DNA from: Dictyostelium discoideum
Lineage: Eukaryota
DNA: 64,000 nucleotides
Direction: 5' to 3'
Assembly (NCBI GenBank): GCA_000004695.1
Contig: CM000154.2
Span: 4,448,001 to 4,512,000, forward strand
In this document: piece after piece, positions 854 to 43,335 of the stretch
Position numbering within the stretch: the first letter of the stretch is position 1
How the letters are laid out: each line of letters begins with the position of its first letter
The notes under the pieces: model-generated
The model's database searches: none
Told to the model about the DNA's origin: nothing
Seen by the model: the letters and a program-made list of their open reading frames with translations, nothing else
Position numbers and translations under genes: made by a program

Positions 854-1384
854 TTAGTTACTGTTACTATTAATATTATTTAAAATGATTGATTCATTAA
901 TTTCCCAATCTTGATGATTATATGAACCAATTGAAATTAATAATTCTTTTGTGCTATTTGACATTTTGAATAAACTATTGATTTTAAAAGTTGATATCAA
1001 TAAATTTTGATTATCATGAATGTGGAATGCTGAATATCTTTTTGATGATTTTCCATTTGATTTTGAAACTAATTTAATCCATTCTTGGTAATCGATTTCT
1101 TTGCAATTAAATTTATTTTCTAAAAACTCATAAATTGATTTCATTTCAATTGAATTACCATTTAAACTGTAAATTGAAATTGGTTTTGATTTATTTTGAT
1201 TCCAACTGTTTTCATTGAATATTAAATCAATTGTGGTTTTAGCTATAGTTGTAATTGGAGTTGTGAAAATTGGTTTATGAATATTTGGATAATAACCAAT
1301 CTCTTTTGAAACTTTTAATAAAAGTGATACGAAATCATTTGAATGACCTATACCTGTTATTGGATTTGAGAATATATCTGAATT

Positions 1385-1475
<91 letters not shown>

Positions 1476-7400: not shown

Positions 7401-9226
7401 AATCTTTTCAAGTGATGAGTTTAGTTTAAAGTATTCTTTATCATCCCATTGGTAAAGTGGTAAATTATTTAATTTGGTTGTGTTACTAATGTTGTTGTTG
7501 TCATTGATTAATTGTGATTTGAAATTAATATCAAAATTATTATTGACATATAATAAAGAGATTGTCTTTAAGAATTCATTATAATCATTCTTCTTTTTAT
7601 TTAATGGTGAATAGATTGTAATGTTTTTACCATTATTAAAGTAACTTGATTGAGTTGATTTCATTTGATTTAAGTAATATTGTAATGTTGGATGTGGTGA
7701 AACTTCAATGAATGTAATTTCATTACCCATATCATTTGATTCGATATGTTTGTAAAGATTTGTAATTGTTTGTGTGAAATATACTGGTTGAATAATATTA
7801 TCAAATACATAATTTGCATTGAATGGTGAAGTTTGATGATTGAATAAATTGGTTGTAACTGTTGAAAATACTGCTATCGATGGTTGTTTCGATGAAATAT
7901 TTAATGAACATACTTCATCTTTAATCATTTGTTGACTTGATGTATGAAATGATGATAATGATCCTAACATTGAACAAAAGATATCATTTGATTTGAATTC
8001 ATTGGTAATTTCATTTAATAAGTCTTCATTACCTGCGATAACGATTGATGTTGGTGAATTGTAACATGCAATTTCTAATGATTTATATTTAGTTGTAGAT
8101 TGATATTTATTAATGAATTCATCTGAACTAATATTAACTGATAACATTCTACCTGTACCTGTGGTTCTATTTTGAGCTACTGATCTATGGTAAGTCAAGT
8201 AACATAATGTTTGAAAATCAATCATACCTGAACAATATGGCGATGATACTTCACCAAGAGAATGACCAATGATAATATCTGCTGAAACACCCCAATGTTT
8301 ATATAATTCATAGAGTGATACTTGAATGATAACATTTGCAGGTTGTGCTAAAATTGGTTGATGAATTGATATTAAATCTTTATCATCAATTGATCTTAAT
8401 TTATCTAAAACTGAATAACCATAATATTTGAATAACTCTTTATCGAATCTATTGACAGATTCTCTAAATATTGGTTCATTATCATATAATGATAATGCCA
8501 TTTTATTATATTGTGAACCTTGACCACATAATACCATTACTGTGATTGGTGATTTCTTTTTTTCAACTGTAATATTTGAAATTAAATTATCACTATTATT
8601 TAATTTGATTTGATTGCTTTCATCTTGAAATTCATTCCAATCACTTGCGATTATAACTGATTTTTGAATTAATGATGTTGATTTGAATTTAATTTGATTA
8701 TATACAAATTCTTTGAAACTTGTTGTTGTTGGCGATGAGTTTGAATTTGAATGTTTAATTATTGATGATTTATAATTATTTAATGATGTTGATGAATTGC
8801 TTGAGAGTGGTATTAAATATTTCTTTTTTTCATTTAAATTATTATCAATTTCCATTTTGTGATAACCATTACCATTACCATAACGACTAAGATTATTTTT
8901 AAATTCAGATAATATTAAACAAACATTTGAACCTAAATAAAAATTGATAATTTTAAATTGTTAATATAAGTTATTTGTATAAAAAGTATGTAATGATATA
9001 TTTACCAGTAACACCGAAATTATTAATTAACATGACAGTTGATTTATTTTCATTAAATTTAATTGGTTCAGTGACAACTTTTAATCCCCATTCTTTAAAA
9101 TTAATTAATGGATTTGGTTCTTTGAAATTAATATTTTGAAGAAATAGTTTATTTTTAAACATTAAACAACATTTAATTAATGATGCAACTCCTGAACATG
9201 CTGTTATTATTTATTATTATTTATTT

Positions 9227-9266
<40 letters not shown>

Positions 9267-10868
9267 AATAATATTAAATGTTAGTAATTAATGATTGACT
9301 ATGGTTATTATTGATCTAAGTCTAATTTTTAATTAATTAGCTTACCTTCAGTATGCCCAATATTTGATTTAATTGATCCAATTAAAACTTGTTTATGATT
9401 ATTATTTGTTGTTGCTGGTGCTTTATTGAAAACTCTTGATATACCTTCTAATTCTATTGGATCACCAGTTGGAGTACCAGTACCATGAGTTTCACAATAA
9501 TCAATATCAGATTCATTGATTTGACCATTGGTTGATTTGATTGCTAATTTGATATTTTCATACTGAGATGATTTTGATGGTGAATAAAAGTTTAATTTAT
9601 CAAAATTACCATCGATATTTGAACTTGATCCTTTGATTACACAATAGATATTATTTGAATCTTTGATTGCATCTTTTAATTTCTTTAATACAACGATACC
9701 AACACCTTCTGAACGAACATAACCATCAGCATCCGATGAAAATGTATGACATCTACCTGTTGGACTTAAAAGACCTAATTGTGTAAATGATTTTGAAATG
9801 TGTGGATCTATAAATAAATAAAAATTATTTGATAATTAATATATTTGTTTTAATTTTTTTTTTTTTTTTTTTTTATTTTTTTTTTTTTAATTTTTAAATT
9901 TATCACATACCTAATATAAAATTAACACCACCAACAATTGAAACATTTGATTTATTTGATTTAATTGAATTATATCCACAATTAATTGCATTTGATGAAC
10001 TTGAACAAGCTGTATCAATTGTTAAATTTTCACCTCTATTTTTTATAAAAAAATAATCACGATAATAACAATTAGTATTATAATTAAGTTTTTAGTGTGT
10101 GCCAAAAAAGATAAATCAAAAACATACCTAAAATCAAAGCAATAACCAATTCTATTTGCAACGGAATGAGTTGATGAACCAAAAATATTATTTTGAGTTT
10201 CAAATGATGATTTTTGAAGATTATTATAATCAATAGTACTACTACCAATAAATGTACTTGTATTGGTACCACGTAAACTAATTGGATCAATACCACTATC
10301 TTCTAATGCTTCCCATACACCTGTTTGTTGATTTTATTTTAAAAAACATTATTAATGGGTAAATGAAAAAAAAATGAAAAAAAAAATTTGGTGGTTATTT
10401 TTTATTTTTTTATTTTTTTTTTTTGGTTGGTTTCATTTTTATATTTTTTGGCGCCAAACCTGATGAAAATTTCCAAAACACTTATAATGAATACATACAT
10501 TTTAATAAAAATCTTTGTTGTGGGTCTATTGAACTGACATTATCATTGCTTGGATTAATTGCAAAGAAGATTGGATCAAATTGTTTCCATTCATCAAGTG
10601 GAAGTAAACCAGCAAACTTTGAAGCAATTTCACCATTTAAAAAATAATTATCAGACCATCTTTCAGAAGTTGTAACGATTCCATCCAATCCATTCAATAA
10701 TTCATTAAATAATTGATTTGGTTTGGAAATTGATTCTTTTAAACTACCACTTGGAAATCTTAAACCAATACCAATAACTGCAACATCACCACTACTACCA
10801 GCATCATCATAATCATTTATATCCCTTATTAATTGATTGTAAGTATTATTATCTGTATTTTGTACCAT
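854..10868 (-). CDS. Highly reducing type I polyketide synthase, copy A (KS-AT-DH-cMT-ER-KR-ACP-R), 7 exons, about 3075 aa
   Basis: Exons (minus strand) reconstructed from the ORF track plus GTATGT/GTAAGT...AG splice signals: 10868..10499, 10320..10128, 10035..9911, 9807..9346, 9200..9006, 8932..1574, 1377..854. Phases are consistent across all junctions.
Domain motifs:
- KS: N-terminal [13 protein letters not shown], active-site DTACSSS (exon 3), [12 protein letters not shown] and NIGHTEG (exon 4)
- AT: GQGSQ (about 8511-8525) and GHSLGE (about 8250-8267)
- DH: [15 protein letters not shown] (about 7289)
- C-MT: [13 protein letters not shown]-binding (about 5857-5884)
- ER: HSAAGGVG (about 4160-4185)
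- KR: LLTGQTGIV (about 3480-3510)
- ACP: GMDSL (about 2565-2578)
- terminal reductase: [14 protein letters not shown] (about 2249-2280)
The last intron (1378..1573) holds an (ATT)n microsatellite. Confidence 0.9.
1387..1506. repeat. (ATT/AAT)n microsatellite inside the last intron of PKS-A
   Basis: About 40 perfect trinucleotide units between the donor (GTATGT at 1573) and the acceptor (AG at 1378). The same repeat sits at the same intron position in PKS-C (24705..24800). Confidence 0.9.
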
Positions 10869-11100
10869 TTTCTTTTTTCTTAATAAATTAATATAACAAA
10901 TTAAAATAAAATATAATAAAATAAATGTGATATTTAAAAATTAAAATTAATAGAAAAAAAATAAAAATTAAATTTTATTTTAAACTGTTTAACAATTTTT
11001 AGTTCATATCAAATTAAAATTAAAACTGATATTTTTAACAGTTTTGCTTACAAATTCAAAGAAGATCTGGGTGTGCTGATATTTATTTGGGAAAAATGAT

Positions 11101-11137
<37 letters not shown>

Positions 11138-11650
11138 ACAGATTGCACAGGTATAGTTTAGATTTATTTATTTTTAATTTATATAAAATCAAAATCATAA
11201 TATAACCCCCACTCCCAACATTAATAATTAATTTTATTCTTATTTTAACAATTTTTTTTTTTTTTTTTCATAAAGTTTAATATTTTCGTTGGAATTAATG
11301 ATTGGTTTTAAAATTTATAAAAAAACAGTTTATTGCAACCACATTTGTACAATAATAATTTTATCTTTTTTTTAATTGGAAAATGGTTATCAAAATTCTA
11401 ATAATGAATTTAATTTTTTCTGTTGTTTTAAAACGTTTCAAGTGTGTTTATTTTTAGAAATAATAAAAAGTTTATTAATTAATTAAAAAAAAAAAAAATT
11501 TGGTGGTTGATTTTTTTTTTTTTTTAAAAAAAAGATGTTAAATTTTAACCCAATTCCCCCATTTAAAGATCAATTTATTTTAACAAACAAAACGTTTTTT
11601 TCAATAATTTTTTTTAATATTATTTTATATAAAAAATAGTCCCTACTCTT
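10869..11650. repeat. About 780-bp conserved PKS upstream block (near-identical copy at 34269..35045)
   Basis: The sequence from the ATG of PKS-A to about 11650 is almost base-for-base identical to the sequence upstream of PKS-C. It includes the about-65-bp motif aaactgtttaacaatttttagttcatatcaaattaaaattaaaactgatatttttaacagttttgcttac (10979..11046 and 34381..34448) and a distal about-300-bp module (11281..11595 and 34670..34997). The duplication unit therefore includes about 0.8 kb of 5' flank. Confidence 0.85.
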
Positions 11651-12221
11651 TAAAATAATAAATCATAAAAAATAAAATAAAATAAAATAAAAAAAAAATA
11701 TTTTTTTTTATTTTAGTGATATTACCTTTTTTTATTTGATTTTTATTTAAATTGCCTCGCCGAATTGTTTTCGATTAGTTTTTAAATTTTAAAAAAAATA
11801 TCAAATTCCACTGGAAAATTTATATTATTTTTATCTTTAATTATTTTTTTTGGTAATATAACCATATTTTAATTAAAAAAAAAAAAAAAATAAAAAAAAA
11901 TATTAGAATCAAACCTTTATACTTTTATTTATCAATTAATTTAAAAAAAAGGCACTTTAACAATTGGTGAATAGAATTGTACTATATTAGTTAATAGTTT
12001 TCATGGTGAATCACCAAAATTATTTTTTATATTTAATATCTTAGTTCACATTTTCATAAGATCAAATTTTAGAATTTTATTGTTTGCCATTCATTCTTTG
12101 AAAATGGTTTTTTATTTTAAAGAACAACCAGAAGGGGGTAAATTTTATTTGTGATTTTTATAAAAAAAAAAAAATTAATTCGATTTGATTTATGAACATG
12201 GTCTTCAAATGATTGATTCAT

Positions 12222-15200
12222 TTAATTATTTTTGTTTTTGTTATTACTATTATTTTTATTATTATTATTATTATTATTTTTGTTGTTGTTTTTAGCCGAT
12301 TTAATAATTTCAATTGATTGATTGATTTTATTATTTTGTAATTGTTGAATTGTGATAATATTATGACCTAATTGATTATCGATAAAATTCTTTAATTGTA
12401 CAATCACTAAACTATCCATACCATATTGCGAGAGTTGAAGGTCTTCATTGATTTTAGATTCATCAATCGATAATAATTCACTAATTTTATTTAAAATTGT
12501 TGAATGAATAATTTCATTATTAGCACCACTATTACCACTAGAGAAGGATTTAATTCGATTTGATTTTTTAACAATATTAATTTGATAATCAAATTTTGAA
12601 TGGTATTGATTTGTTAAAGTTGGTGTTAAAACTTCAAAATTGAAATCTGATAAACAGTAATTTGGATATTGATGTTGATTTTGAATGAATAAATCTAATG
12701 AACTAATAACGAGTTGAGGTGAGAATAAATTTACAATTGAACTCTTAAACATTGTTTCAATTGCATTATTACGCGATACAAAACCGGTTGATGATATCGC
12801 ACCTAAATTAATGGCTAAAGATGGTAATCCAATTGAATGTCTATACTTTGATAATGAATCGATAACACTACATGCACTAACATAACAACATTGTTGGTCT
12901 GATCCAAATATTGAGACTACTGATGATGCCATTATAAATTGTTTGATATTCCATGAACGATTAATTGATTGATTGTGAAGATTAATTGCTCCAATCGTTT
13001 TAGCACCATGTGCATTATTTAAACGATTCATATCGACTTGTTGAACATCACCAATGTCTATCATAAATGCAAAATGAATGATTGAATCAATATTTGTAAT
13101 ATTTTCATTTAATTCTAATTGGTTCAATACTTGATTAACTTTATTTGAATCTTCAATATCGATTTGATTGAAATGGAATTTAATATTATTATCTTTTTTA
13201 AATTTGCTTTGATTGATTAATAATTTTAATTCCCATTTTAATTTTGATTTTGAAAGTATTATTATATTTTCAATTGAATGGTTTGAATATTTGATTAAAT
13301 ATTTTAATATTTCTAAAACAATACCAGTTTGACCAGTGAGTAAAATATTTTTACCAATATTTAATTTTGAAATATCATATGAATGTTTCATTATGATTTG
13401 ATTGTTATTACTTTGATAATTATTATAAACTCTATTAAATTCATCTTGATTATGATTAACAATGATTTTACCAATATGTTTTCTTTGATTTATATATTCA
13501 ATTGCATCTTTAAATTGATTATTTGAATATTCAATGATTGGTACACTTAACTCTAATTTATTTGAATTAATCATTTTGATAATTTTCTTTAAATATCTTT
13601 TGATTAATTTACTTGGGAAATCTTCGATATCCACATTACCATAGTTCATATTAAATTTGTAATGATTGTTTGTCATATAATCATTTGGTGTGAGATGAGT
13701 GATACTTAAATCAACGATACGTCCTGATAAATTTAAACATTGGAAATTTGAATCCATATACTCTGATGATAATGTATTTAATATTAAATCTACACCTTGT
13801 TGATGTTGTTCGACTACACCTAATTCTATTAATTTATTCTTAATTTCATAAACATAATCTTTATTACGAGATGAATAGATAGCAGTAATTAATGATCCAT
13901 ATTTATTTATTAAGTATTCTTCTTTATCTTTTGAACCAACTGTTAAAAATATATAACCTTGATGTTGTTTACTTTTTAATAAATCTAAAGATGATATACC
14001 AATACCACCTGCTGCTGAATGAATTAAAATTGATTCATTTGATTTTAAATTACCAATACTATAGATACTATGTAATGTTGTAATATAAATAGATGGTATT
14101 GAGGCTGAAACTGAATGACTACAATTTAATGGTTTATAATAAATAGAATTGAAATCTATAATAACATGTGAACTATTTGTTTTTGAACCGAAACCACAAA
14201 CTTGATCACCAACTTTAAATTTCTTTACATTACTACCTAATCTTGTAATTATACCACTAAAGTCATTACCAATTTTTGGATTATCAATACCAATACCATA
14301 TTCAATTTCTTTACCATATTTAATATCTAAATCTGAACCAATCATACCAATATACATTAAATAGTCTTTATAATTTATACCAGTTGCTTTAACTTCTATC
14401 TCTACTTCATTTGAATTTAATTCATCTTTTTTACTATATAATTGATATTCTATATTTGAATTTAATTGAATATATAAATTATCTTTATTGGTTTCAAATG
14501 ATTCAGATTGGAATTTACTTTTTATATTATTTGATCTTCTACAGTATCTTTCATAGTATACTTTATTATTATTAATTGTAAATTCTTTTTGAATATTATT
14601 ATTTGGATTGATTAAATAATTGATTAATGATAATTGTTGATTATTTTCAATTGAAACATTATCATAATTTAAAATATATAAATCTAATTGTGGGAATTCA
14701 ACGAAATAACGAGCAGCACCAATAATTGATGATGATAAATAATTATCAGTGGTTGAATTTAATGATAATAATAAATGTTTGAAATTATTTGATAATTCTA
14801 ATTTTAATATTAATTGATTAATTTGAATGTATTCAAATGTGATTTCTTTGAAATTTGAAGTATTCATTGTTGATTCAATTGATTTTAAAAATATTATTAA
14901 TGATTTATTACAATTATCTTTATTTTGATTATTTGTAATCCATGATTGAAATTCATTATAATTATTAATATTAATGATTTTATGTTTTAATTCTTGATTT
15001 AATCTTATTAAATCAAGAATACTACTGCTGCAACTATTTCTATTTTTATTATTACTAAATAAAATGATATTATTGAAAGAATTTAATTGATCTAATGATA
15101 TTGATTGTTCTGAAATGATTTCATTAATTGTTGGTTTTCTAGTTTGAATTAAAAATAGTAAATTATCATTACCAGACATTATTGTATCTCTATAATTACA

Positions 15201-18200
15201 TTGACTCAAAAGGTTAACCCATTTCTCTTGTTTCATACAACATCTATCAGGTCTTAATTCGATATCACCATCAGAGGATGGCCACCATTGTGAAAAACAA
15301 CCGAATATCGAATCAAAATAAAATGATTTGTATGGTGGTTCTATATATAAAAGTTGACCATTTGGTGTTAATATATTATGAATTTCATTTAATGTTGGTT
15401 TGAGTTTCTTAACGACATGCATAACATTTGACATTACAACGAAATCATAATAGGATGCTTTAAGATCTTGATCTAATAATGGTTTCTCTAAATCTAATAC
15501 ACGATAGATAATATTTAAATTGTTATGATTTGTAAATGATGAGAACTTTTCTTTAATTTCAGCGAAAAATGATGCAGATACATCACTCCATGTAAATTCT
15601 ATATTAATGATTGATGTTGTACTATTATCATTTAATAATTTACAAATCTTTTCTAAAATTAATAAACTAAGACTACCAGTACCACCACCTGCTTCTAATA
15701 TACGAAATACAATTGGTTCATTTAAAATTGGTTTTAGAGTTTCAACTATAATTTCACTTAATAAATTATTCAATGGTTGAACTACTCTTGAATTCTTATA
15801 AAAGTCATCTAAAAAACCACTTTCAAATAATGATTGTGGTGTATCTGTAATAGAATCATCATCTTTTAATGGGAATAACTGTTTTGCCATTATTTTAGTT
15901 GTTCTAATAAATATCTTTTCAATTTTTGGCTTAATATTACTTTGATTATTGTCATGGTTAAGAATATTACTATATCTCTTTAAATTTTCAAAAATGAATT
16001 TGAAAAGATTTTCATTTACTAAACTATTATAATATAATTGTTTAAATTGATTATATTCTAATGTTGTTAATGATTCTAAATTAATACTTGGACATCTATT
16101 ATTAATGTGTTTATAAAATAATGACAATAATAATTCATTTGAAATAAATTGATTATCTTCTTCGTTGACACTAAATTCATCCACACTATATAAATGTTTG
16201 AATTGTTCAGGTTTATTAACTACTGAATCTTTTGATTGAAGATATGGTGTATAAATATCATTTAATGGTGGTTTACAAATTATAGTACTATCAGGATTGG
16301 AGCCAAGTGAAACTAAAGCGCAAACTACATTTGAGATATCAACTAATAATGTACCATTTGGAAGTATGATTTTGACTGATATTGAATATGTTTGATAATT
16401 GGTTCTAGGTTTAATATCTGAAAAAACATATAATTCTTTAATATCATCATTATTGTTGTTTTCATTTAATGATGGAATATTTGAAAAGTAATATTTGAAA
16501 CCTTCAATTCTATCAAGTACGACTGGTTGTGTAACTGCAACTAATGACCCATGTAAACAAGTATCTAAAATTGCTGTATTTAAGAATTTATTCATATTGC
16601 TATTGTTGATTAAATGATTATATTCTTTTTGATTATAAATTTCATTTAATGATACTATTGATAATGAACAATTATTACCGATATAACATTGTTTTACACC
16701 TTGAAATAAACCTTTGTATGTTAAATTTGTTTTAATTCGAATAGTTTCATAAAAATCTTGTTTTGATATGCTTGTAAAATTACATTTATCTTTTAATGAT
16801 TGAATATTAATTAATTTGTTACTGATGATACTGTTATGTTTGGTTAAATTAAAATTACCAAGAGATGATAATATCCATTGATTTGTTTTTTGATCTTTAT
16901 AATGACTTTTAATATTGAATTCATTCTTTGATAGTGGTGCAATTGTAGTTTGTAAACATTGATTATTACCTTCTGTTAATACCAATGGTGATTTAAATTC
17001 TAATGAGCTAATTGTAATATCTTGATTTGGATAAATTGATAATAAATTGTGAACATATCCCATTCCTGGATAATAGAATTTATCACTAACTTGATGACCT
17101 TTTAACCATTGGAATGGAGATTTCTTGATATCGATAAATGTTTGATATGATGGATATGGTGAATCTGTATTATTGCCAAGACTATGAATGGATGGACCTT
17201 CACTTTTAATCTTTTCATGAAATGAAGCAATTTTAAAGTATTCTTTATCATCCCATTGGTAAAGTGGTAAATTATTTAATTTGGTTGTGTTACTAATGTT
17301 GTTGTTGTCATTGATTAATTGTGATTTGAAATTAATATCAAAATTATTATTGACATATAATAAAGAGATTGTCTTTAAGAATTCATTATAATCATTCTTC
17401 TTTTTATTTAATGGTGAATAGATTGTAATGTTTTTACCATTATTAAAGTAACTTGATTGAGTTGATTTCATTTGATTTAAGTAATATTGTAATGTTGGAT
17501 GTGGTGAAACTTCAATGAATGTAATTTCATTACCCATATCATTTGATTCGATATGTTTATAAAGATTTGTTATTGTTTGTGTGAAACGAACTGGTTGGCG
17601 AATATTTTCAAATGCATAATCTGCATTGAATGGCAAGCTTTGATGATTGAATAAATTGGTTGTAACTGTTGAAAATACTGCTATCGATGGTTGTTTTGAT
17701 GAAATATTTAATGAACATACTTCATCTTTAATCATTTGTTGACTTGATGTATGAAATGATGATAATAATCCTAACATTGTACAAAAGATATTATTTGATT
17801 TGAATTCATTGGTAATTTCATTTAATAAGTCTTCTCTACCTGCGATAACGATTGATGTTGGTGAATTGTAACATGCAATTTCTAATGATTCATATTTAGT
17901 TGTAGATTGATAGTTATTAATGAATTCATCTGAACTAATATTAACTGATAACATTCTACCTGTACCTGTGGTTCTATTTTGAGCTACTGATCTATGGTAA
18001 ATCAAGTAGCATAATGTTTGAAAATCAATCATACCTGAACAATATGGTGATGATACTTCACCAAGAGAATGACCAATGATAATATCTGCTGAAACGCCCC
18101 AATGTTTATATAATTCATAGAGTGATACTTGAATGATAACATTTGCAGGTTGTGCTAAAATTGGTTGATGAATTGATATTAAATCTTTATCATCAATTGA

Positions 18201-20561
18201 TCTTAATTTATCTAAAACTGAATAACCATAATATTTGAATAACTCTTTATCGAATCTATTGACAGATTCTCTAAATATTGGTTCATTATCATATAATGAT
18301 AATGCCATTTTATTATATTGTGAACCTTGGCCACATAATACCATTACCGTGATTGGCGATTTCTTTTTTTCAACTGTAATATTTGAAATTAAATTATCAC
18401 TATTTTCTAATTTGATTTGATTATTTTCATCTTGAAATTCATTCCAATCACTTGCGATTATAACTGATTTTTGAATTAATGATGTTGATTTGAATTTAAT
18501 TTGATTGTGTACCAATTCTTTGAAACTTGTTGTGGTTGTTGGCGATGAGTTTGAATTTGAAAGTTTAATTATTGATGATTTATAATTATTTAATGATGTT
18601 GATGAATTGCTTGAGAGTGGTATTAAATATTTCTTTTTTTCATTAACTTTACTATCAATTTCAATTTTGTGATATTCATTTTCATAACGATTATGATGAT
18701 TTTTTTTTAATTCAGATAATATTAAACAAACATTTGAACCTAAATTAAAATTGATAGTTTTAAATTATTAATATAAGTTATTTGGAATCATTAATGATGT
18801 ATATTTACCAGTTATACCGAAATTATTAACTAACATGACAGTTGATTTATTTTCATTAAATTTAATTGGTTCAGTGACAACTTTTAATCCCCATTCTTTA
18901 AAATTAATTAATGGATTTGGTTCTTTGAAATTAATATTTTGAAGAAATAGTTTATTTTTAAACATTAAACAACATTTAATTAATGATGCAACTCCTGAAC
19001 ATGCTGTTATTATTTATTATTATGAAAAATATTTAATGTTAGTAATGATTTATAGCTCTAAAGTTAATTAATTAACTTACCTTCAAGATGTCCAATATTT
19101 GATTTAATTGATCCAACTAAAACTTGTTTATTATTATTTATTGTTGTTGATGGTATTTTAGCACTATTGAAAACTCTTGAAATACCTTCTAATTCTATTG
19201 GATCACCAGTTGGAGTACCAGTACCATGAGTTTCACAATAATCAATATCAGATTCATTGATTTGACCATTGGTTGATTTGATTGCTAATTTGATATTTTC
19301 ACACTGAGATGATTTTGATGGTGAATAAAAGTTTAATTTATCAAAGTTACCATCGATATTTGAACTTGATCCTTTGATTACACAATAGATATTATTTGAA
19401 TCTTTGATTGCATCTTTTAATTTCTTTAATACAACGATACCAACACCTTCTGAACGAACAAAACCATCAGCATCTGATGAAAATGTATGACATTTACCTG
19501 TTGGACTTAACATATCTAATTGGGTGAACGATTTTGAAATGTGTGGGTCTATAAATAAAATTTTTTTGATAATTAATATATAATTCTAAAATTTTCTTTT
19601 TTTTTTTTTCAAATTTATCACATACCTAATATAATATTAACACCACCAACGATTGAAACATTTGATCTATTTGTTTTAATTGAATTATATCCACAATTAA
19701 TTGCATTTGATGAACTTGAGCAAGCTGTATCAATTGTTAAATTTTCACCTCTATTTTTAAAATAACAATTAGTATTTAAGTTTTATTCTTCCAAAAAAGA
19801 TAAATCAAAACATACCTAAAATCAAAGCAATAACCAATTCTATTTGCAATTGAATGAGTTGATGAACCAAAAATATTATTTTGAGTTTCAGATGGTGATC
19901 TTTGAAGATTATAATAATCAATAGTACTATTACCAATAAATGTACTTGTATTGGTACCACGTAAACTAATTGGATCAATACCACTATCTTCTAATGCTTC
20001 CCATACACCTGCATGTTTGTTAATTTTATTTTAAAAAACATTATTAATGGGTAAATAAATAAATAAATAAAATAAATAAATAAATAAATAAATAAAAGAA
20101 AAAAAAAATTTTGGTGGGTTCATTTTTTTTATTATTTATTTTTGGCCAAACCTGATGAAAATTTCCAAAACACTTAATAAATACATACATTTTAATAATA
20201 ATCTTTGTTGTGGGTCTATTGAACTGACATTATCATAAGTTTGATTAATTGCAAAGAAGATTGGATCAAATTGTTTCCATTCATCAAGTGGAAGTAAACC
20301 AGCAAACTTTGAAACGATTTCACCATTTAAATAATAATTATCAGACCATCTTTCAGAAGTTGAAACGATTCCATCCAATCCATTCAATAATTCATTAAAT
20401 AATTGATTTGGTTTTGAAATTGATTCTTTTAAATTACCACTTGGAAATCTTAAACCAATACCAATCACTGCAACATCACCATCATCATTTCTATCAACAT
20501 CATCATCATCATTTCTATCCCTTATTAATTTATTATTATTATTATCTATATTTTGTGTCAT
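12222..20561 (-). CDS. Type I polyketide synthase, copy B (KS-AT-DH-cMT-ER-KR-ACP), lacks the terminal reductase domain; 6 exons, about 2623 aa
   Basis: Exons: 20561..20189, 20008..19816, 19750..19626, 19548..19081, 19003..18809, 18739..12222. Exon lengths (373/193/125/468/195) match copies A and C. The large exon is near-identical to A and C through the ACP, then stops (TAA at 12222-12224) inside the poly-Asn linker (...[25 protein letters not shown]). In A and C this linker connects ACP to the R domain. Sequence 3' of the stop (12221..11650) has no similarity to the R domain or last exon. Confidence 0.85.
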
Positions 20562-20574
20562 TTTCTCTTTTTAC

Positions 20575-20695
20575 AAATAAATAAAATAAAATAAAATAAA
20601 ATAAAATAAAATAAAATAAAATAAAATAGAATAAAATAGAATAAAATAGAATAAAATAGAATAAAATAGAATAAAATAAAATAAAATAAATAAAT
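20575..20695. repeat. (AATAAAATAG/AATAAAAT)n minisatellite immediately upstream of the PKS-B ATG
   Basis: Tandem ataaaataaa / ataaaataga units. Confidence 0.8.
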
Positions 20696-21574
20696 AAATT
20701 TGATATTTAAATAATAGAAATAAAAAAAAAAATTAAATAAAAAATTTGATGACGTTTATAGTTTTTGAAAAAATAAAAATAAAAAAAAGGTTAGATTGTT
20801 TGGATATTACTTTCAACACAAATAATTAATTTTAATTTTTGTTTTTTTTTTATTTGACCCAAAATTATGTTTTTTTTTATTTTTTTTTATTTTTTTTTTT
20901 TAAAATCTGGTGACTCTATATAAAAAACTATTTAATAGATTTAACTTAATGTATAGTTTGCTTTTGTGTTTGTAAATTTAGAAAAAAAAAAAAAAAATGA
21001 AATGTTGCAACTTTTTTATTTTTTTTGTTTCTATTTGATATCTCTTTTTTGTTATATGTTTACTTTACGAATTTATTACAGAAAAAATATAAATACATTC
21101 ATCTAAAATATAAATGCATTAATCTAAAATTTACATTTTTTCTGAAATCTAAAATTTTATACATTCATCTAAAATATGATTTTTTATTTCAGAAAGTGAT
21201 ACCTTTTGGTCACATATTTTACATGGCACAACTATTGGTGAAAGTTTACTCATTTCAGTCATTTTTAAATTTAAAGATAAAATATATATGTATTAGACAA
21301 AAAAAAAAAAATTAAAAAAATTTATATGAGACTCCTTATTATGTTTTATAAATTTTAATACGACAACAATTTCGACAAAAAAAACATTTTTTTTTCAAAA
21401 AAAAAACTTTTTTTTTCTGAAAATATTACACCCAGACACAAAAAATTAATTTTTCACCACTTTAATGCTGAAATTTTTACACCCTTAATTAGATTATAAC
21501 TTTTTTTTTTTTTTTAATTTATTGTTTTTATTTTTATTTTTGTTTTTATTTTTGTTTTTAAAATTAAATAATAA

Positions 21575-21890
21575 AAAAACAGTTTATTGAAATCAAGATG
21601 TTGAAGTATATTACAAAAGGTACAATGGTCATTTTTTTATTTTGGTTTTTTTTTTAAAATTAAAATAAAATAAAATTAAACAGTTTTCAAAAAATAAATT
21701 AAAAAAACTTTTTTTTAAACTGTTTTCAAGTGCGTTTTTAGAAATAAAAAAAGTTTTTTAATTATTAATAAAGAAAAAAAAAAAAAAAATTTGGTGGTTT
21801 TTTTTTTTTTAATAGAAGGTTAAAATTATTTTAACCCACTTCCCCAAAATTTAAATATATCAATTTGTTTTTAACAAAAACATTATTGGT
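21575..21890. promoter_or_regulatory. Third copy of the distal about-300-bp upstream module (contains TTTGGTGG), here in the divergent PKS-B / P450 intergenic region
   Basis: It shares acagtttattg, aaactgtttt, caagtg(c/t)gttt(a)tttttagaaataa(t)aaaaagttt, aaaaaatttggtggtt and ttaaa(a)ttattttaacccacttcccc with 11281..11595 and 34670..34997. It lies about 90-400 bp upstream of the P450 ATG. Confidence 0.5.
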
Positions 21891-21975
21891 TTTTTTATTT
21901 CATAATTTAAATAGTTTTTTTTTAAAAAAACTTTAATATAAAAGATTCTCAATTTATATATTTTATAATATTACA

Positions 21976-23730
21976 ATGAATACAATATTTACAATTATTT
22001 TAACAATTACAATATTAGTATTATCATTAATATTAAAAGTAAAATTTTAAAATATTATATATATTATTGACTATTAAAAATTAAACACTTACTTATACTT
22101 TTATTTTTTTAAATAGGATTTATTATTTGAAGGTAGGATTAAAAAAATTAATAAATTAATACCTGGTCCTTCTACAATTCCAGTTTTTGGTAATTTATTA
22201 CAAATTAACGCAAAAGATTTCCCAAAAAGTGTAAATGATTTCTATGAAAGATATGGCAAAGTTTTTAGATTAAGATTGGGTAGTGTTGAAATTGTTGTTC
22301 TAACTGGACCTGAAGTTATTGATGAATGTTTTAATAAAAAACATAGAGAAATTTTCAAAGAAAGATATATTAAATTCTCAAGATTTTTGGGTAAAGATTA
22401 TAATATTTTTTCTTCAAATGGTGATTATCATTATGTTCTAAGAGGAATTCTTACAAGTGAAATTACAACAAGAAAGTTAAATAATGGCAGATTAGAATCA
22501 AATAAATTTATTTTAGAAATGTTTAGTAATCTTTGTAAAGATAATAAAGAAACTCTTGTTAAAAATACACCAAATCAAATTAGGATTCTTGCTGTTAAAT
22601 TAATATTAAATTTCACATTAGGAATTGAAGAGAATGACGAAACCATTCTAATCATTGTAGAAAAGATTAAATGCATTTTTGAAGCTGCTGGATTATTAAT
22701 TTACTCTGATTATTTACCATTTTTATTTCCATTAGATATAAAATCAATGTCAAAGAATGATATTATTTCTAGTTACTTTTTTATAAAAGATTTTATAGGT
22801 ATAAAACTTGATGCTATTAAAATTAAATATGAAAAAGAAAATGAATTGAAAAATGAAACTACTGATGAAACATCTTCAAAACTAAACAATATTCCAATTA
22901 TTGAGAATTATTATAAAAATTATTTAGATGGTTCAATTCATTATGATTCAATCTTGTTTTCAATTTCTGATATTATTTTTGCAGCAGTTGATTCAACATC
23001 CAATGGGTTTAGTCTTTTAATTGGTCAATTAATTAATAAACCTGAAATTCAAGATAAAATATATGAAGAAATCATGAGAAATGATGAAAATAATAATACA
23101 AATAATATATCATTTGCTGATCATACAAAATATCCATATATTATTTCTGTAATGAATGGTAATTATCCATATATATATATATATATTGGTATTAATATGT
23201 GTTGATATATTTTTTCAAAAAATAAATTTTGTATTAATTTGAATAATAGAATCATATAGATATAATTCTTCAGTACCAATAACTGAACCGAATAAAACAA
23301 CAGAAGATGTTGAAGTAAATGGATATAAAATTGCAAAAGGTACAATGATAATTAAAAATCTTCGTGGTACACATTTATCAAAAGAGTTTTGGGGTGAAGA
23401 TGCTTTAGAATTTAAACCAGAAAGATTTAAAAATCAACCTTTAAATCAAAAAGGACTTTTTCATTTTGGTGCAGGTATGTTTTAAACTATTTTGAAATGG
23501 GAATCAAAATTTATCACTAATACAATAATAAATATTATTTTATTTAAACAGGAGCTAGAGCTTGTCCAGGAGGAAGATTTACAGAATCTTTTACTTTTAC
23601 TTTTTTGGTGATAATGTTAAAGAATTTTAAAATAGTCAATCCAACTGATATTCCAATTGATGTTGAAGGAGAAGTTGGTTTGGCAATGCAATGTAAACCT
23701 TTTGATGCCTTATTCATAAAACGTAATTAA
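21976..23730 (+). CDS. Cytochrome P450 monooxygenase, 4 exons
   Basis: Exons approx 21976..22038 (MNTIFTIILTITILVLSLILK membrane anchor), 22117..23158 (IPGPSTIPVFGNLLQI..., ORF 22276..23205), 23249..23474, 23552..23730. The spliced product carries the heme-binding signature FHFGAG/GARACPGGRF across the exon 3-4 junction and ends ...KPFDALFIKRN*. Transcribed divergently from PKS-B; the two ATGs are about 1.4 kb apart. Confidence 0.85.
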
Positions 23731-24162
23731 AAAAAAAAAAGAATATATTTTTTATTATTTTAATTATTGTTTTCATTTAAATGTAAATAAAAAAAAAAAA
23801 AAAAATAATATTTAATATATTTGTTTTTTAATTTGGTTTCTTTTATTGTTTTTTTTTATTATTGTTTTTTAATTATTTTTATCATTAATTTTTTTTTTTA
23901 TTGTATTTTTTTTAAGAATTATATTTTCAAGATGGTTATTTTATAATAAACCCAGATATTAATTAAGTGGTCACTTAAAATATTAAATAACCAGTTTGAA
24001 TGATTAAGATAGATCAATTACCTATCACTCATATTATATTTGATAACAAAAATAATAAACAATAAGTAATAATTTTATTGCAATCCTATATAGGATTTTG
24101 GTTTTATCTCTTTTTTATTATTATTAATCTTACTTTGATTAATCTTTTTATTTTATTTTATT

Positions 24163-34268
<10,106 letters not shown>

Positions 34269-34500
34269 TTTCTTTTTTCTTAATAAATAAATATAACAAA
34301 TTAAAATAAAATATAATAAAATAAATGTGATATTTAAAAATTAAAATTAATAGAAAAAAAATAAAAATTAAATTTTATTTTAAACTGTTTAACAATTTTT
34401 AGCTCACATCAAATGAAAATTAAAACTGATATTTTTAACAGTTTTGCTTACAAATTCAAAGAAGATCTGGGTGTGCTGATATTTATTTGGGAAAAATGAT

Positions 34501-34536
<36 letters not shown>

Positions 34537-35049
34537 AGATAGATTGCACAGGTATAGTTTAGATTTATTTATTTTTAATTTATATAAAATCAAAATCATA
34601 ATATAACCCCCACTCCCAACATTAATAATTAATTTTATTCTTATTTTAACAATTTTTTTTTTTTTCAGTTTAATATTTTCGTTGGAATTAATGATTGGTT
34701 TTAAAATTTATAAAAAAACAGTTTATAAATTTATTGCAACCACATTTGTACAATAATAATTTTATCTTTTTTTTAATTGGAAAATGGTTATCAAAATTCT
34801 AATAATGAATTTAATTTTTTCTGTTGTTTTAAAACGTTTCAAGTGTGTTTATTTTTGGAAATAATAAAAAGTTTATTAATTAATTAAAAAAAAAAAAAAA
34901 AAATTGGTGGTTGATTTTTTTTTTTTTTAAAAAAAAGATGTTAAATTTTAACCCACTTCCCCCATTTAAAGATCAATTTATTTTAACAAACAAAACTTTT
35001 TTTTTCAATATTTTTTTTTAATTTTATTTTTTATAAAAAATAGTCCCTG

Positions 35050-37527
35050 TTATTAATTAATTGTGATTTGAAATTCATATTTAAATTATTATTGACAAAT
35101 AATAAAGAGATTGTCTTTAAGAATTCATTATAATCATTCTTCTTTTTATTTAATGGTGAATAGATTGTAATGTTTTTACCATTTTTAAAGTAACTTGATT
35201 GAGTTGATTTCATTTGATTTAAGTAATATTGTAATGTTGGATGTGGTGAAACTTCAATGAATGTAATTTCATTACCCATATCATTTGATTCGATATGTAT
35301 ATAAAGATTTGATATTGTTTGTGTGAAACGAACTGGTTGGCGAATATTTTCAAATGTATTATCTGTATTCAATGGCAAGCTTTGATGATTGAATAAATTG
35401 GTTGTAACTGTTGAAAATACTGCTATCGATGGTTGTTTCGATGAAATATTTAATGAACATACTTCATCTTTAATCATTTGTTGACTTGATGTATGAAATG
35501 ATGATAATAATCCTAACATTGTACAAAAGATATTATTTGATTTGAATTCATTGGTAATTTCATTTAACAAGTCTTCTCTACCTGCGATAACGATTGATGT
35601 TGGTGAATTGTAACATGCAATTTCTAATGATTCATATTTAGCTTTAGATTGATATTTATTAATGAATTCATCTGAACTAATATTAAATGATAACATTCTA
35701 CCTGTACCTGTGGTTCTATTTTGAGCTACTGATCTATGATAAGTCAAGTAACATAATGTTTCAAAATCAATCATACCTGAACAATATGGTGATGATATTT
35801 CACCAAGAGAATGACCAATGATAATATCTGCTGAAACACCCCAATGTTTATATAATTCATAGAGTGATACTTGAATGATAACATTTGCAGGTTGTGCTAA
35901 AATTGGTTGATGAATTGATATTAAATCTTTATCACCAATTTATCTTAATTTATCTAAAACTGAATAACCATAATATTTGAATAACTCTTTATCGAATCTA
36001 TTGACAGATTCTCTAAATATTGGTTCATTATCATATAATGATAATGCCATTTTATTATATTGTGAACCTTGGCCACATAATACCATTACTGTGATTGGTG
36101 ATTTCTTTTTTTTCAACTGTAATATTTGAAATTAAATTATCATTATTTTCTAATTTGTCCAATATTTGATTTAATTGATCCAACTAAAACTTGTTTATTA
36201 TTATTTGTTGTTGTTGTTGTTGATGGTATTTTAGTATTATTGAAAACTCTTGATATACCTTCTAATTCTATTGGATCACCAGTTGGAGTACCAGTACCAT
36301 GAGTTTCACAATAATCAATATCAGATTCATTGATTTGACCATTGGTTGATTTGATTGCTAATTTGATATTTTCACACTGAGATGATTTTGATGGTGAATA
36401 AAAGTTTAATTTATCAAAGTTACCATCGATATTTGAACTTGATCCTTTGATTACACAATAGATATTATTTGAATCTTTGATTGCATCTTTTAATTTCTTT
36501 AATACAACGATATCAACACCTTCTGAACGAACAAAACCATCAGCATCCCATCAAAATGTATGAAATTTACCTGTTGGACTTAACATATCTAATTGGGTGG
36601 ATGATTTTGAAAGGTGTGGGTCTATAAATAAAAATTATTTGATAATTAATATATAATTCTAAATTTTTCTTTTTTTTTTCAAATTTATCACATACCTAAT
36701 ATAAAATTAACACCACCAACAATTGAAACATTTGATTTATTTGATTTAATTGAATTATATCCACAATTAATTACATTTGATGAACTTGAACAAGCTGTAT
36801 CAATTGTTAAATTTTCACCTCTATTTTTAAAATAACAATAAAGTTTTATTGTTCCAAAAAAGATAAATCAAAACATACCTAAAATCAAAGCAATAACCAA
36901 TTCTATTTGAGATGGAATTAGTTGATGAACCAAAAATATTATTTTGAGTTTCAAATGGTGATCTTTGAAGATTAGAATAATCAATAGTACTATTACCAAT
37001 AAATGTACTTGTATTGGTACCACGTAAACTAATTGGATCAATACCACTATCTTCTAATGCTTCCCATACACCTGCATGTTTTTTGATTTTATTTTAAAAA
37101 ACATTATAAATAAATAAATTAAATAAATAAATAAATAAATAAAAGAATTGAAAAAAAAAAATTTTGGTGGGTTCATTTTTTTTATTATTTATTTTTTTGG
37201 CCAAAAAACACTTAAAAAATACATACCTTTAATAATAATATTTGTTGTGGGTCTATTGAACTGACATTATCATAAGTTGGATTAATTGCAAAGAAGATTG
37301 GATCAAATTGTTTCCATTCATCAAGTGGAAGTAAACCAGCAAACTTTGAAACGATTTCACCATTTAAATAATAATTATCAGACCATCTTTCAGAATTTGT
37401 AACGATTCCATCCAATCCATTCAATAATTCATTTAATAATTGATTTGGTTTGGAGATCGATTCTTTTAAATTACCACTTGGAAATCTTAAACCAATACCA
37501 ATCACTGCAACATCACCATCATCATTT
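35050..37527 (-). pseudogene. Decayed PKS fragment (KS exons 1-4 plus part of the AT region) with an internal deletion, in-frame stops and a truncated 5' end
   Basis: ORFs 37212..37505 ([13 protein letters not shown]... KS N-terminus, truncated upstream of DDGDVAV) and 35031..35774 (AT-domain segment). Exon 2/3/4 homologs lie at about 37075-36165. Exon 4 carries a stop (...PTGKFHTF*WDAD, about 36545). At about 36164 the exon-4 homolog is fused directly to sequence from the start of the AT region; exon 5 and the 5' part of exon 6 are deleted. The AT part has a stop (DKLR*IGDKDL, about 35940). The 3' end is joined abruptly at about 35050 to the conserved PKS upstream block (aaaaatagtccct|gttatt...). 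Confidence 0.8.
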
Positions 37528-38666
37528 CAAAAAAAAACGAAACAAAGAAATAAACGAGAATTTATACATATAATAAATAAATCACTGTTATATCTTCACC
37601 GCCACATTCATTCCTCTTAATTTTACCCTATTTTTGCTCAATAAAGCAAGGGCTATCGTCCTATATACTTTTCAACAATGGCTGATTATCACTCAACTGA
37701 ATTACAGTTAAATCATACAGATAACAACACAACCAATACAAATAGTACCTCCACAACCTCAACAACAAAAAACAAAAGTGCAAAAATCGACACACCTAAA
37801 AAACAAAGGACTTGATAATCAATTAGATATCATTGCACCTCCATCAATCACAAGACCACTCTCTTTCTTAGAAAAAAACAATAACACCATCAACATTAAG
37901 TGTTACTTTAATCAACCACACATCCGTGAAGAATTAAACTCTATAGATGACACAAGAATTCAACAAATTCACAAAAACATTCACAAACTCTTGGAAGATA
38001 TACTGTCGCCATCAGCATTTAAAATAATTGGTGCAACTGCCTTCGTAAATTGCAACGTCGATAAATTAACTTCAATAATCAACCTTCAAAACCAACTTGC
38101 ACTAAATATCGATAAACTCAACTATAGATTCGAAATATCATCAAATGATTATGCAATCATTAAAACATTCATTCAAACGACTCACCCAAACATGCAAACT
38201 ATGCAATTATAAACAACCTCACCAAATTCTCTAGTTGTACATCAATTAAATCATTTACTGTCACATACTCATATGCTGTTGCGTTTAAAAGCTACATTAT
38301 AACATATCATCTAATTGATCACACACACAACATTGTTGATCAAAAGATCGAACAACCATCTGGTATCACAAGATATATCAAAGCTGCAACACGTAGTATC
38401 ACTAAACACAAAATTCAACATGCAAAAAATGCAGATATGGCAACAACTATAAAAAATGCCCTCACAAACCCAAATATTAACAAAAACAATCAACCACCAA
38501 AAAACAACATTAACACCCCACCAATCAACGAAATTGCAAATTCCAATCGCAATAATAACCCACTTCAAAATAGTGTTTCAAAAGCTACACTAAATGAATT
38601 ACTTGATATTAACAATCAATCCCAAAACAATAATTAAATTTCACGCAAATGTGATTCTTCAAATAA
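37528..38666 (+). mobile_element. Retrotransposon-like fragment (A/C-rich sense strand, frameshifted ORFs), probably a degenerate non-LTR (TRE-type) element 5' portion; its right end is lost in an assembly gap
   Basis: Composition changes abruptly from about 80% AT to A/C-rich, T-poor sequence exactly where the PKS pseudogene exon 1 breaks off (about 37527). Open frames in two phases (MADYHSTELQLNH...*, then 37778..38212 MQKSTHLKNKGLDNQ..., then 38437..38637) are typical of a decayed ORF1 of a Dictyostelium non-LTR element. Family assignment is not possible from memory. Confidence 0.45.
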
Positions 38667-38766
38667 NNNNNNNNNNNNNNNNNNNNNNNNNNNNNNNNNN
38701 NNNNNNNNNNNNNNNNNNNNNNNNNNNNNNNNNNNNNNNNNNNNNNNNNNNNNNNNNNNNNNNNNN
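38667..38766. other. Assembly gap (100 N)
   Basis: Run of exactly 100 N. Confidence 0.99.
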
Positions 38767-39582
38767 TTTTTATTTTTAATTAAATCACAAATATCATTAT
38801 AGGTTCATAATAAATCTTGAGGACCTTAGAAACTATTCGTTATTTTTTATTTTTTTTTTTTCTTTTTTTTAATTTTATTAATTATCTTTTGTCATTTAAA
38901 AATAAAATTTTTTTTTTTTTTTATTTTAATTAAAATCGAAAATCCCAAAATAAAATGAAAAAAAATCTTAATTTTAATTTTTGGGATTGAATTAAGATTT
39001 ATACTCCCCTACCTTTTTTTTATTTAATGTTGATTGGGGTGAAAAAAAAAAAAAAAAAAAATATTTTGTTTTGATTTGTTTTTTTAATTTATTTTTATTT
39101 TATTTTATTTTTTTTTTTTATTTTTAAAAAAATCAAATTTTTGAATTCAAAAATAGTATTTGCACACCATGCTTTATTAAAAAAAAATCATTTTATATAT
39201 AAAAAAATCATTTTATATTTATAAAACCACTTCAAATAATTGGTATCAAGAATAAAAAAAAAAAAAAAATAAAAAAGAAAAAAATAAAATTAAAAAAAAA
39301 ATTTATATATATTATTAAATATAATAATGAAATAAAAAAATTAATATATATTTTTATATATTTATATATAGTGCATTTTACTAAAAGTAAATCAAGCTAA
39401 TTAGTATGTAGTGTTTAAAAAATTTCTATTTTTATTTTAATATTATTTTTTAAATTTTTTTTTTTTTTTAAAAATATCTTCTCTTTCTGTCCCCCTTTTT
39501 TTTTTTTTTTTTTTTTTTTGGGGGGTTTTTATTTTGGAATAAAAAATTATGTTTCCTCTTTTCATCTATTTATAGAAGAAAA

Positions 39583-39618
<36 letters not shown>

Positions 39619-39858
39619 CTTTTACTTACCACCCAAAACAATTATTCAAAATTATATTCAGAAATATTATTTAATTTAAATTTCCAATAAAATCAATATT
39701 ATTTCAATTATTATTATTATTTTTAATTTTTATATAAATATAAATAAAAATTAAAAAAAAAATAATAATAATAGTTAATTTAAAATTATAGAAACAAAAA
39801 AAAAAAAAAAAAACAAATAATTTAAAATTATAGAAACAAAAAAAAAAAAAAAAAAAAA

Positions 39859-41174
39859 ATGGAAGGAGTATTATCATCATTATTAGCATCATCATTAATT
39901 GTTGGATTTCCATCATTAATATTTGTATGTTCAATATTAATTTATTATTATTTATGTGTTATGAAAAAGAAAATTTCATCAAAAGATTCATTACCACCAG
40001 TGATTGGGGTATATATAATGAGATGTATTTATTCAATAACTCAATATTGGGAGATGATAATACCACAAATTAAATTATACAGAATTTCCAATGATTATAT
40101 TGTTTTTCAATGTTTATCTGTGGTTTTCACATTAAAAGTAATGGATTATTTAAAAGATGGACCTAAAACCATTAGAGAATTATCACAATTAACAAAATCA
40201 AGTGAAAAGAATTTATTTAGAGTAATGCGTGCTCTAACTCAAGAACATATTTTTAACTATAATCAAAGTAATCAAACATTTTCATTAAATTCATGTTCAA
40301 AACTATTAACTTCACCACCACCACCATCATCATCTCCATTTGAACAAAATGGTATATTATCAACAAATGATGAAGAATTAGGATGTATATTTTCAATGTT
40401 AAGTTATCCAACATTTATTGATGCATGGAGATCATTAAAAGAATGCATTGAAAGTGGTGTTAGTGGTTTTCAAGCAAAGCATGGTATGACATTCTTTCAA
40501 TATATTGATGAAAAAGATACTTATATTAAAAAGATATTTGATTCTGCAATGAGACAAAGAATTATGCAACTAAAATACATACACAAATAATCAATGGTTA
40601 TGATTTTTCAAAGTATAAAAAAGTTTGTGATATTGGTGGAGGTATCGGATTCCTTGGCTTTGAAATTGTGAATCACAATGCCAATACGTGTGTATGTGTA
40701 TTAGAGTTGGAGGAGACTGTTAGAAATGGGTTAGAACAAAGTAAAGTAGATGAAAAGAAGCAACGTATAATTGAGGAACAAAGATTGGTTTTTAAAACTG
40801 GTAATATGTTTATACCAAGATCAATCCCATCTGCAAATCTTTACATTATGATGCAAGTTATTCATGATTGGAATAACAATGATGCAATTAAAATTCTATC
40901 ATCTGTTGCATCAACTATGAGAATGGAGAGAAACCACACTGGTCAATCTCCAAAATTATTAATCATTGATTCAATCCTTGATGATAATATCAATAATGAC
41001 ACCTACAAACGTTCATGTATACCTGATATCATAATGATGGCAATTGTAGGTGGTGAAGAAAGAACACTTTCACAATGGGGTCATATAATTAAAGAAAGTG
41101 GTTTACAAGTTTTAACAATTAAAAAATTTAATCGTCCACCATTTTTATCATTAATTGAATTAACAATTCAATAA
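39859..41174 (+). CDS. Class I SAM-dependent O-methyltransferase (plant/COMT-like OMT family); reading frame broken by a 1-bp deletion in an A run near 40585-40588
   Basis: The N-terminal frame (ORF 39859..40590) has the dimerisation-domain-like segment QIKLYRISNDYIVFQCLSVVFTLKVMDYLKDGPKTIRELSQL and ...KKIFDSAM. The C-terminal frame (through 41174) has IINGYDFSKYKKVCDIGGGIGFLGF (SAM motif I), FKTGNMF, ANLYIMMQVIHDWNNNDAIKIL. The two frames meet at cacaaa|taatcaatggt. Adding one A restores ...KYIHKIINGYDF.... The true start is uncertain: the hydrophobic MEGVLSSLLASSLIVGF... at 39859 may be real, or the start may be an internal Met near 40019/40049. Confidence 0.75.
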
Positions 41175-43235: not shown

Positions 43236-43335
43236 NNNNNNNNNNNNNNNNNNNNNNNNNNNNNNNNNNNNNNNNNNNNNNNNNNNNNNNNNNNNNNNNN
43301 NNNNNNNNNNNNNNNNNNNNNNNNNNNNNNNNNNN
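43236..43335. other. Assembly gap (100 N)
   Basis: Run of exactly 100 N in the 3' flank of the alg7-like gene. Confidence 0.99.

Follow-up and report, generated by a model that had tools for sequence, protein, structure and literature searches.

The 64,000-nucleotide stretch analysed here (the window) belongs to chromosome 5 of Dictyostelium discoideum AX4 and carries a cluster of polyketide synthase (PKS) and P450 genes. Our reference within it is PKS-B, whose six-exon model is residue-for-residue equal to 'Probable polyketide synthase 31' (pks31, DDB_G0290703, Q54FQ1), a probable highly reducing type I iterative polyketide synthase with KS, AT, DH, MT, ER, KR and ACP domains by Pfam. Among the PKS models pks31 alone was matched by exact look-up, the model of PKS-C giving no match, and a literature search on pseudogenes of pks29, pks30 and pks31 found none, returning fungal papers only. 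Adjoining the upstream region of PKS-C is a dead, decayed duplicate of pks31, which occupies window 35048-37528 on the minus strand. PKS homology on that strand ends at 37528, and from 37529 the sequence becomes A/C-rich (GC skew -0.31 to -0.40), running as a mobile element into a scaffold gap, on the right of which lies omt10. The features are as follows.

20561-20189, 20008-19816, 19750-19626, 19548-19081, 19003-18809 and 18739-12222, minus strand: the six exons of pks31, encoding 2623 aa
34269-35047, minus strand: upstream (promoter-side) block of PKS-C, homologous to the PKS-A upstream block at 10869-11644
35048-36157, minus strand: AT-domain segment of the pseudogene, part of exon 6 (Pfam Acyl_transf_1, E = 1.4e-39)
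36158-37528, minus strand: KS segment of the pseudogene (Pfam ketoacyl-synt, E = 4.7e-53, and a truncated Ketoacyl-synt_C)
37528-37227, 37071-36879, 36820-36696 and 36621-36158, minus strand: exon 1 remnant, exon 2, exon 3 and partial exon 4 of the KS segment
37529-38666, plus strand: 5' 1138 bp of a TRE3-type non-LTR retrotransposon, on the strand opposite to the pseudogene
38667-38766: 100-N scaffold gap, which cuts the retroelement
43236-43335: 100-N gap, the second N-run of the window

In a BLASTN comparison of 35000-38666 with the window, the closest paralogue of the pseudogene was pks31, and the other paralogues aligned less well. The AT block, 35048-36157, matches pks31 17306-18414 at 97.2-97.3% identity, and the KS block, 36156-37528, matches pks31 19089-20491 at 93.3% identity, or 96.6% with gaps excluded. 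Because these alignments exceed 1 kb at 93-97% identity, chance is excluded for the sequence observations. The two genes have in common their exon-intron positions, a pks31-type upstream region and a divergent P450 neighbour. By base-level alignment projected onto pks31 codons, we mapped the following lesions and junctions.

36553-36551, minus strand: nonsense change TCA>TGA at codon 254, in the KS part
35942-35940, minus strand: nonsense change TCA>TAA at codon 632, in the AT part
end of exon 1, at the exon 1 donor, minus strand: 1-nt deletion at codon 125
near 36114, minus strand: frameshift by insertion of one A in the AT segment
36157/36158: internal deletion junction, 674 bp missing, equal to pks31 18415-19088
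35047/35048: 3' deletion junction, about 5.66 kb missing, equal to pks31 11645-17305

The pseudogene also carries a 6-nt in-frame insertion relative to pks31, has lost its ATG to a 1-nt deletion together with codons 8-12 (at the start of exon 1, read in a second assembly described below), and is without everything past about codon 933. Only ketoacyl-synt, the truncated Ketoacyl-synt_C and Acyl_transf_1 are left of its Pfam domains. Compared with pks31, it has thus kept neither the ATG nor the C-terminal extension of KS, nor any of the DH, MT, ER, KR and ACP domains; it contains two nonsense codons and no fewer than two frameshifts, and a retrotransposon splits it. A functional type I iterative PKS has an uninterrupted reading frame with KS, AT and ACP as a minimum; here the frame is broken and ACP is gone, and the KS-AT remnant is predicted to be non-functional. 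Over 760 codons, 19 synonymous and 56 non-synonymous changes separate it from pks31, a ratio that is roughly neutral, as expected without selection. A match to the Fluoride riboswitch at 35779-35837 was dismissed as chance similarity in AT-domain coding sequence, its score of 23.7 bits comparing with a gathering score of 34.

The 674-bp deletion runs from within exon 4, whose end is lost, to ~325 nt into exon 6; exon 5 and both introns 4 and 5 are gone whole, and with them codons 384-560, which cover the KS C-terminus and the linker. The ~5.66-kb deletion takes the DH, MT, ER, KR and ACP domains with the 3' flank. At the resulting 35047/35048 junction, the AT segment runs into sequence that self-BLAST (33866-35048 against 10467-11644) places at 95% identity with the 5' end and upstream region of PKS-A. 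In a three-way junction alignment, the sequence common to both sides amounts to 2 nt (TG) at 36157/36158 and 1 nt (T) at 35047/35048, and with only 1-2 nt in common the junctions point to illegitimate or microhomology-mediated joining and not to homologous recombination between paralogues. The initial annotation had described a PKS pseudogene with stops in its KS and AT parts, a fusion of KS exon 4 to the AT region with exon 5 deleted, and a 3' fusion to the conserved PKS upstream block; all of this is borne out, and the alignment to PKS-B that it had proposed for mapping the breakpoints located both deletions. It was also right that PKS homology stops where a retroelement-like sequence begins.

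That sequence belongs to a mobile element, as the initial annotation had supposed, and not to a single-copy gene. A 149-nt 5' UTR is followed by ORF1 (gag) from an ATG at 37678. With its frames corrected, ORF1 aligns along 100% of the query, at 89% identity, with the D. discoideum gag protein AAD43056.1/Q9Y1H6 (E = 3.6e-174), and its matches comprise eight protein clusters, that of AAD43056.1 and seven others from D. discoideum. AAD43056.1 is, we take it, the accession of the TRE3 paper, Szafranski et al. 1999. At the DNA level, five copies with 93-96% identity lie in two unrelated loci, and the element is 96.5% identical to a copy associated with tRNA-Gly. Intact gag copies of AX4 encode 402 aa; relative to intact copies, ORF1 here has lost 29 nt at 37802 and 1 nt at 38180 and has gained a stop by GAA>TAA at 38635-38637. 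In AX4 this copy is annotated as gene model DDB_G0290713, which is spliced from the ORF1 remnant 37678-38637. The window lacks the other 5.26 kb of the copy, cut off at the gap, together with what follows it, namely the remnant of exon 1, the upstream region and a paralogue of the P450 (P450').

These parts can be read at the locus of ACTFIT_001678 on chromosome CM142511.1 of GCA_054883475.1 (hereafter L001), a gene model of this very element copy. L001, from a near-identical strain, matches window 27673-38666 at 99.9% identity and is free of Ns; what follows the insertion can be read in this assembly alone, the corresponding sequence being missing or placed elsewhere in AX4. In L001 the element spans 9852-16247, 6396 bp in total, has no LTRs and ends in a 22-nt poly(A) at 16226-16247. 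Its ORF2 encodes an APE endonuclease (Exo_endo_phos, E = 3.3e-13), then a reverse transcriptase (RVT_1, E = 9.9e-31), and by eye its translation shows a Cys/His-rich C-terminal stretch, a candidate zinc finger. ORF2 is split into pieces and also carries a 1.14-kb foreign insert, which accounts for the length of 6.4 kb. Published lengths are 5229 bp for TRE3-A/Tdd-3 and 5279 bp for TRE3-B (Spaller et al. 2016, PMC5006619). Without the insert, the copy would measure ~5.0-5.3 kb, which fits TRE3-A or TRE3-B and weakly excludes TRE3-C (4734 bp). With two frameshifts and one stop in ORF1 and an interrupted ORF2, the copy is presumably dead.

Whether the element belongs to TRE5 or TRE3 was decided from sister copies at two unrelated loci of the ACTFIT assembly (L004 and L005). 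TRE5 elements sit ~50 bp upstream of a tRNA gene, with the 5' end facing it (PMC5006619, PMC3159450). In four of the L004/L005 copies the 5' end is readable, and three of the four start downstream of tRNA genes in the same orientation, at 45 bp from tRNA-Met, 67 bp from tRNA-Gly and 87 bp from tRNA-Phe; one sister copy has a 14-bp target-site duplication directly after the B-box-like GTTCGATCC. Since this placement matches the published behaviour of TRE3 (PMC5006619), we assign the family to TRE3. The 5' end of the element in the window is full-length and aligns with those of the other copies.

The flanks of the element establish how it came to lie in the PKS gene. The two copies of the target-site duplication are located as follows.

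37519-37528, plus strand: left copy, tcatcatttc, 10 bp, or 11 bp with the preceding a
L001 16248-16257, outside the window: right copy, tcatcatttc, directly after the poly(A)

After the right copy L001 reads ...tatcaacatcatcatcatcatttctatccc..., the exact continuation of pks31 exon 1, and this exon 1 sequence matches pks31 from 20492 onwards, supplying the missing first ~80 nt. The native sequence itself contains a near-repeat of tcatcatttc; the right flank matches from the first occurrence, and the duplication is therefore real. An empty, uninterrupted site would read ...caccatcatcatttctatcaac.... Taken together, the complete 5' end of the element, its poly(A) of 22 nt and the target-site duplication of 10-11 bp indicate a simple target-primed insertion. 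The TRE3 element is thus inserted ~80 nt into exon 1, and the gene is split by it, not 5'-truncated. KS-only gene models of D. discoideum ACTFIR and ACTFIW and of D. citrinum were considered as counterparts and set aside as other paralogues, as they share 79-87% identity with the KS segment of the pseudogene and resemble PKS-A or PKS-C more closely.

Past exon 1, L001 continues with an upstream region of the pks31 type (89% identity with window 20609-20997) and then with P450' (97% identity with window 21463-23519); overall, L001 16328-19236 matches window 20609-23777 at 89-97% identity. Within the window, self-comparison matches 818-11644 (PKS-A and flanks) to 24134-35048 (PKS-C and flanks) at 94-95%. 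The repeat unit is window 818-24133, matching 24134 onwards; pks31 has its counterpart in the pseudogene, and the P450 at 21463-23777 has its counterpart in P450'. The array is thus a ~23.3-kb tandem segmental duplication, with PKS-A, pks31 and P450 as unit 1 and PKS-C, the pseudogene and P450' as unit 2, which ends after P450'. Because the pks31-type upstream region and P450' lie beyond the element, the TRE3 junction is inside unit 2 and not at its edge.

The same comparison bears on the AX4 reference at the gap. In CM142511.1, omt10 (window 39859) is found on the forward strand at 4.551 Mb, and window 27673-38666 is found reversed at 4.606-4.617 Mb. A second, more divergent strain assembly has the same layout, and in both newer assemblies every PKS gene of the array is on one strand. 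The 38.6-kb block left of the AX4 gap is inverted in both and lies ~55 kb from omt10, and what precedes the equivalent of window 38767 in these assemblies is unique DNA that contains neither PKS nor TRE sequence. The sequences flanking the AX4 gap thus do not adjoin each other in the newer genomes, and the AX4 join reflects either an error of scaffolding or a rearrangement specific to AX4. For users of the PKS/P450 cluster this is a practical warning that AX4 chromosome 5 coordinates are unreliable at this gap.

TRE3 elements have been described as 'always' located ~100 bp downstream of tRNA genes, and Table 1 of the same study counts 60 of 67 TRE3-A and 39 of 43 TRE3-B copies as tRNA-associated (PMC5006619). 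The copy studied here has PKS exon 1 as its flank and lies outside the position expected ~100 bp (14-305 bp) downstream of a tRNA gene. ARAGORN predicted no tRNA gene in the 64-kb window; neither ARAGORN nor Rfam at gathering threshold predicted one in the 21 kb of L001, and Rfam gave none in window 33000-40000 at E <= 1. There is no A box near the insertion, and a cryptic tRNA or exact B box close to it was considered and rejected, the nearest exact B-box core in the window being >4.8 kb away. Proximity to a tRNA gene is a property of a copy and family membership is decided by sequence; the assignment to TRE3 therefore stands without a tRNA. This copy is a rare, clean exception to tRNA association, with its target-site duplication inside a coding exon.

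Could the site nonetheless have been chosen? We think it unlikely, though worth stating, that a candidate B-box-like site for the RNA polymerase III factor TFIIIC, created by substitutions specific to exon 1 of the pseudogene, attracted the element. The motif concerned, GTTTGGAGATCGATTC, occupies 37448-37463 on the element's strand and precedes the element's 5' end by 66-81 bp. It has two mismatches to the published B-box pattern GTCnnnnGTTCRAnYC (PMC3159450), which the paralogues match less well at this site, and about 0.025 such two-mismatch matches are expected per 215-bp target window. However, the motif was found post hoc and serves as a lead only; it is a poor match to the canonical GGTTCGAATCC, a 9-nt B-box core with one mismatch occurs ~0.87 times per strand-kb, and both a tRNA gene and an A box are absent around it. 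We lean towards a bona fide tRNA-independent retrotransposition of TRE3 into a protein-coding exon, which may have been guided by a cryptic B box, with such hits surviving in redundant recent duplicates. If this is true, the targeting of TRE3 to RNA polymerase III genes is leaky.

For the locus as a whole, the explanation that we hold very probable is a decayed pks31-like member of unit 2, disrupted by a TRE3 insertion, two illegitimate deletions and point changes. A redundant tandem duplicate would have been free to decay neutrally, and the lesions may have arisen in any order. By target-primed reverse transcription, a TRE3 non-LTR retrotransposon entered exon 1, in the orientation opposite to the gene. 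Two deletions, illegitimate and with microhomology of 1-2 nt, removed 674 bp and ~5.66 kb, the latter comprising all that lay 3' of the AT domain, and point changes brought two nonsense codons, the loss of the ATG and no fewer than two frameshifts.

The initial annotation had told this history differently, with the retroelement truncating the PKS copy at its 5' end, the junction marking the likely edge of the duplicated unit and non-allelic deletion, read here as homologous recombination, removing the missing parts. Within the window alone that is a natural reading, as PKS homology ends at 37528 and nothing PKS-like follows the gap, but in L001 the element is followed by the second tcatcatttc, the remainder of exon 1, the upstream region and P450'. 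Misassembly of L001 at the poly(A) end is in turn argued against by the exactness of the duplication, and the 1-2 nt shared at the deletion junctions speak against recombination between paralogues. We therefore regard this alternative as very improbable: its picture of a decaying array holds for the pseudogene, the deletions and the retrotransposon, and fails for the truncation, the unit boundary and the non-allelic mechanism. Harder still to credit is that the KS-AT chimera is an assembly artefact, produced in AX4 by the collapse of near-identical PKS paralogues. The region does sit in an array of 93-97% identical paralogues and adjoins a scaffold gap, at which the AX4 join conflicts with two newer assemblies. 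However, an independent chromosome-level assembly repeats all junctions, stops and the element at 99.9% over 11 kb, and its annotators split the locus likewise into KS-only and AT-only gene models. The decayed pks31 duplicate of unit 2 remains the reading that we prefer.

Taken together, the locus combines ordinary gene decay with a known retrotransposon family, its one mildly unusual feature being a tRNA-independent TRE3 insertion. It offers a textbook snapshot of a redundant duplicate dying in a secondary-metabolism array by transposon, illegitimate deletions and point mutations, and the clean, duplication-flanked TRE3 outside a supposedly obligatory tRNA niche bears on how strict 'safe-haven' targeting is in Dictyostelium. 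Set against its family, the element resembles other TRE3 copies in its ORF1 (89% to gag), in an ORF2 with APE followed by RT, and in its short 5' UTR, poly(A) and target-site duplication. It differs in lying in a protein-coding exon with no tRNA gene in the window or L001, and its target-site duplication measures 10-11 bp, whereas that of the one canonical TRE3 copy examined measures 14 bp. The event is also similar to exon disruption of the LINE-1 type, in which a coding exon is interrupted by a non-LTR element that is complete, ends in a poly(A) and is flanked by a short target-site duplication. Unlike in that system, TRE elements normally avoid damage to genes by targeting RNA polymerase III genes, and the gene struck here is a redundant tandem duplicate.

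ORF2 of the TRE3 copy, the non-LTR retrotransposon lying inside exon 1 of the pks31-like pseudogene, is split between its endonuclease and reverse transcriptase (RT) parts by a 1.14-kb AT-rich insert. The insert occupies positions 11990-13130 of L001, the corresponding locus in the gapless ACTFIT assembly (GCA_054883475.1), within the stretch that the window gap conceals, and includes a long run of poly(A) as well as the beginning of a Q-rich ORF (MSTNNNEDIDNDELQQQ…). The canonical TRE3 copy at the unrelated locus L005 has no such insert. On the pseudogene side, a B-box-like motif, GTTTGGAGATCGATTC, at 37448-37463 (+) precedes the TRE3 5′ end by 66-81 bp. This motif is specific to the pseudogene, its paralogues reading GAAATTGATTC at the same position; picked out post hoc, it is a possible candidate for a cryptic TFIIIC site. 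A fluoride riboswitch match at 35779-35837 (+) scored 23.7 bits, below the Rfam gathering score of 34, and falls inside AT-domain coding sequence; we judged it to be due to chance.

Among the polyketide synthase genes, pks31 stops (12222) directly after its ACP domain. PKS-A and PKS-C have, in addition, a C-terminal NAD_binding_4 (thioester reductase-like) region and one more intron at the 3′ end, and pks31 has neither. The C-terminal regions compared with the pks31 end were:

1566-2348, PKS-A
24870-25649, PKS-C

In two newer assemblies the sequences that flank the AX4 scaffold gap (Ns at 38667-38766) are separated: the 38.6-kb block to the left of the gap is inverted and lies ~55 kb from omt10, and a single strand carries all array PKS genes. 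Either AX4 chromosome 5 is mis-scaffolded here, or it carries a rearrangement specific to AX4. To the right of the gap, at 40559/40560, an A-run is one A shorter in AX4 than in the ACTFIT assembly (99.7% identical), and the single-exon omt10 reading frame is thereby broken into two ORFs:

39859-40590, first omt10 ORF
40668-41174, second omt10 ORF

The difference may be an AX4 reference sequencing error or a genuine frameshift.

The make-up of the PKS/P450 array varies strongly from strain to strain, as seen in other D. discoideum strains (L006, L008), and also differs strongly in the sister species D. citrinum (L007). Each of these three loci holds additional PKS genes broken into several gene models, including KS-only pieces of 367-434 aa; from these split models, fragmented or decaying PKS copies seem to be common in the cluster.
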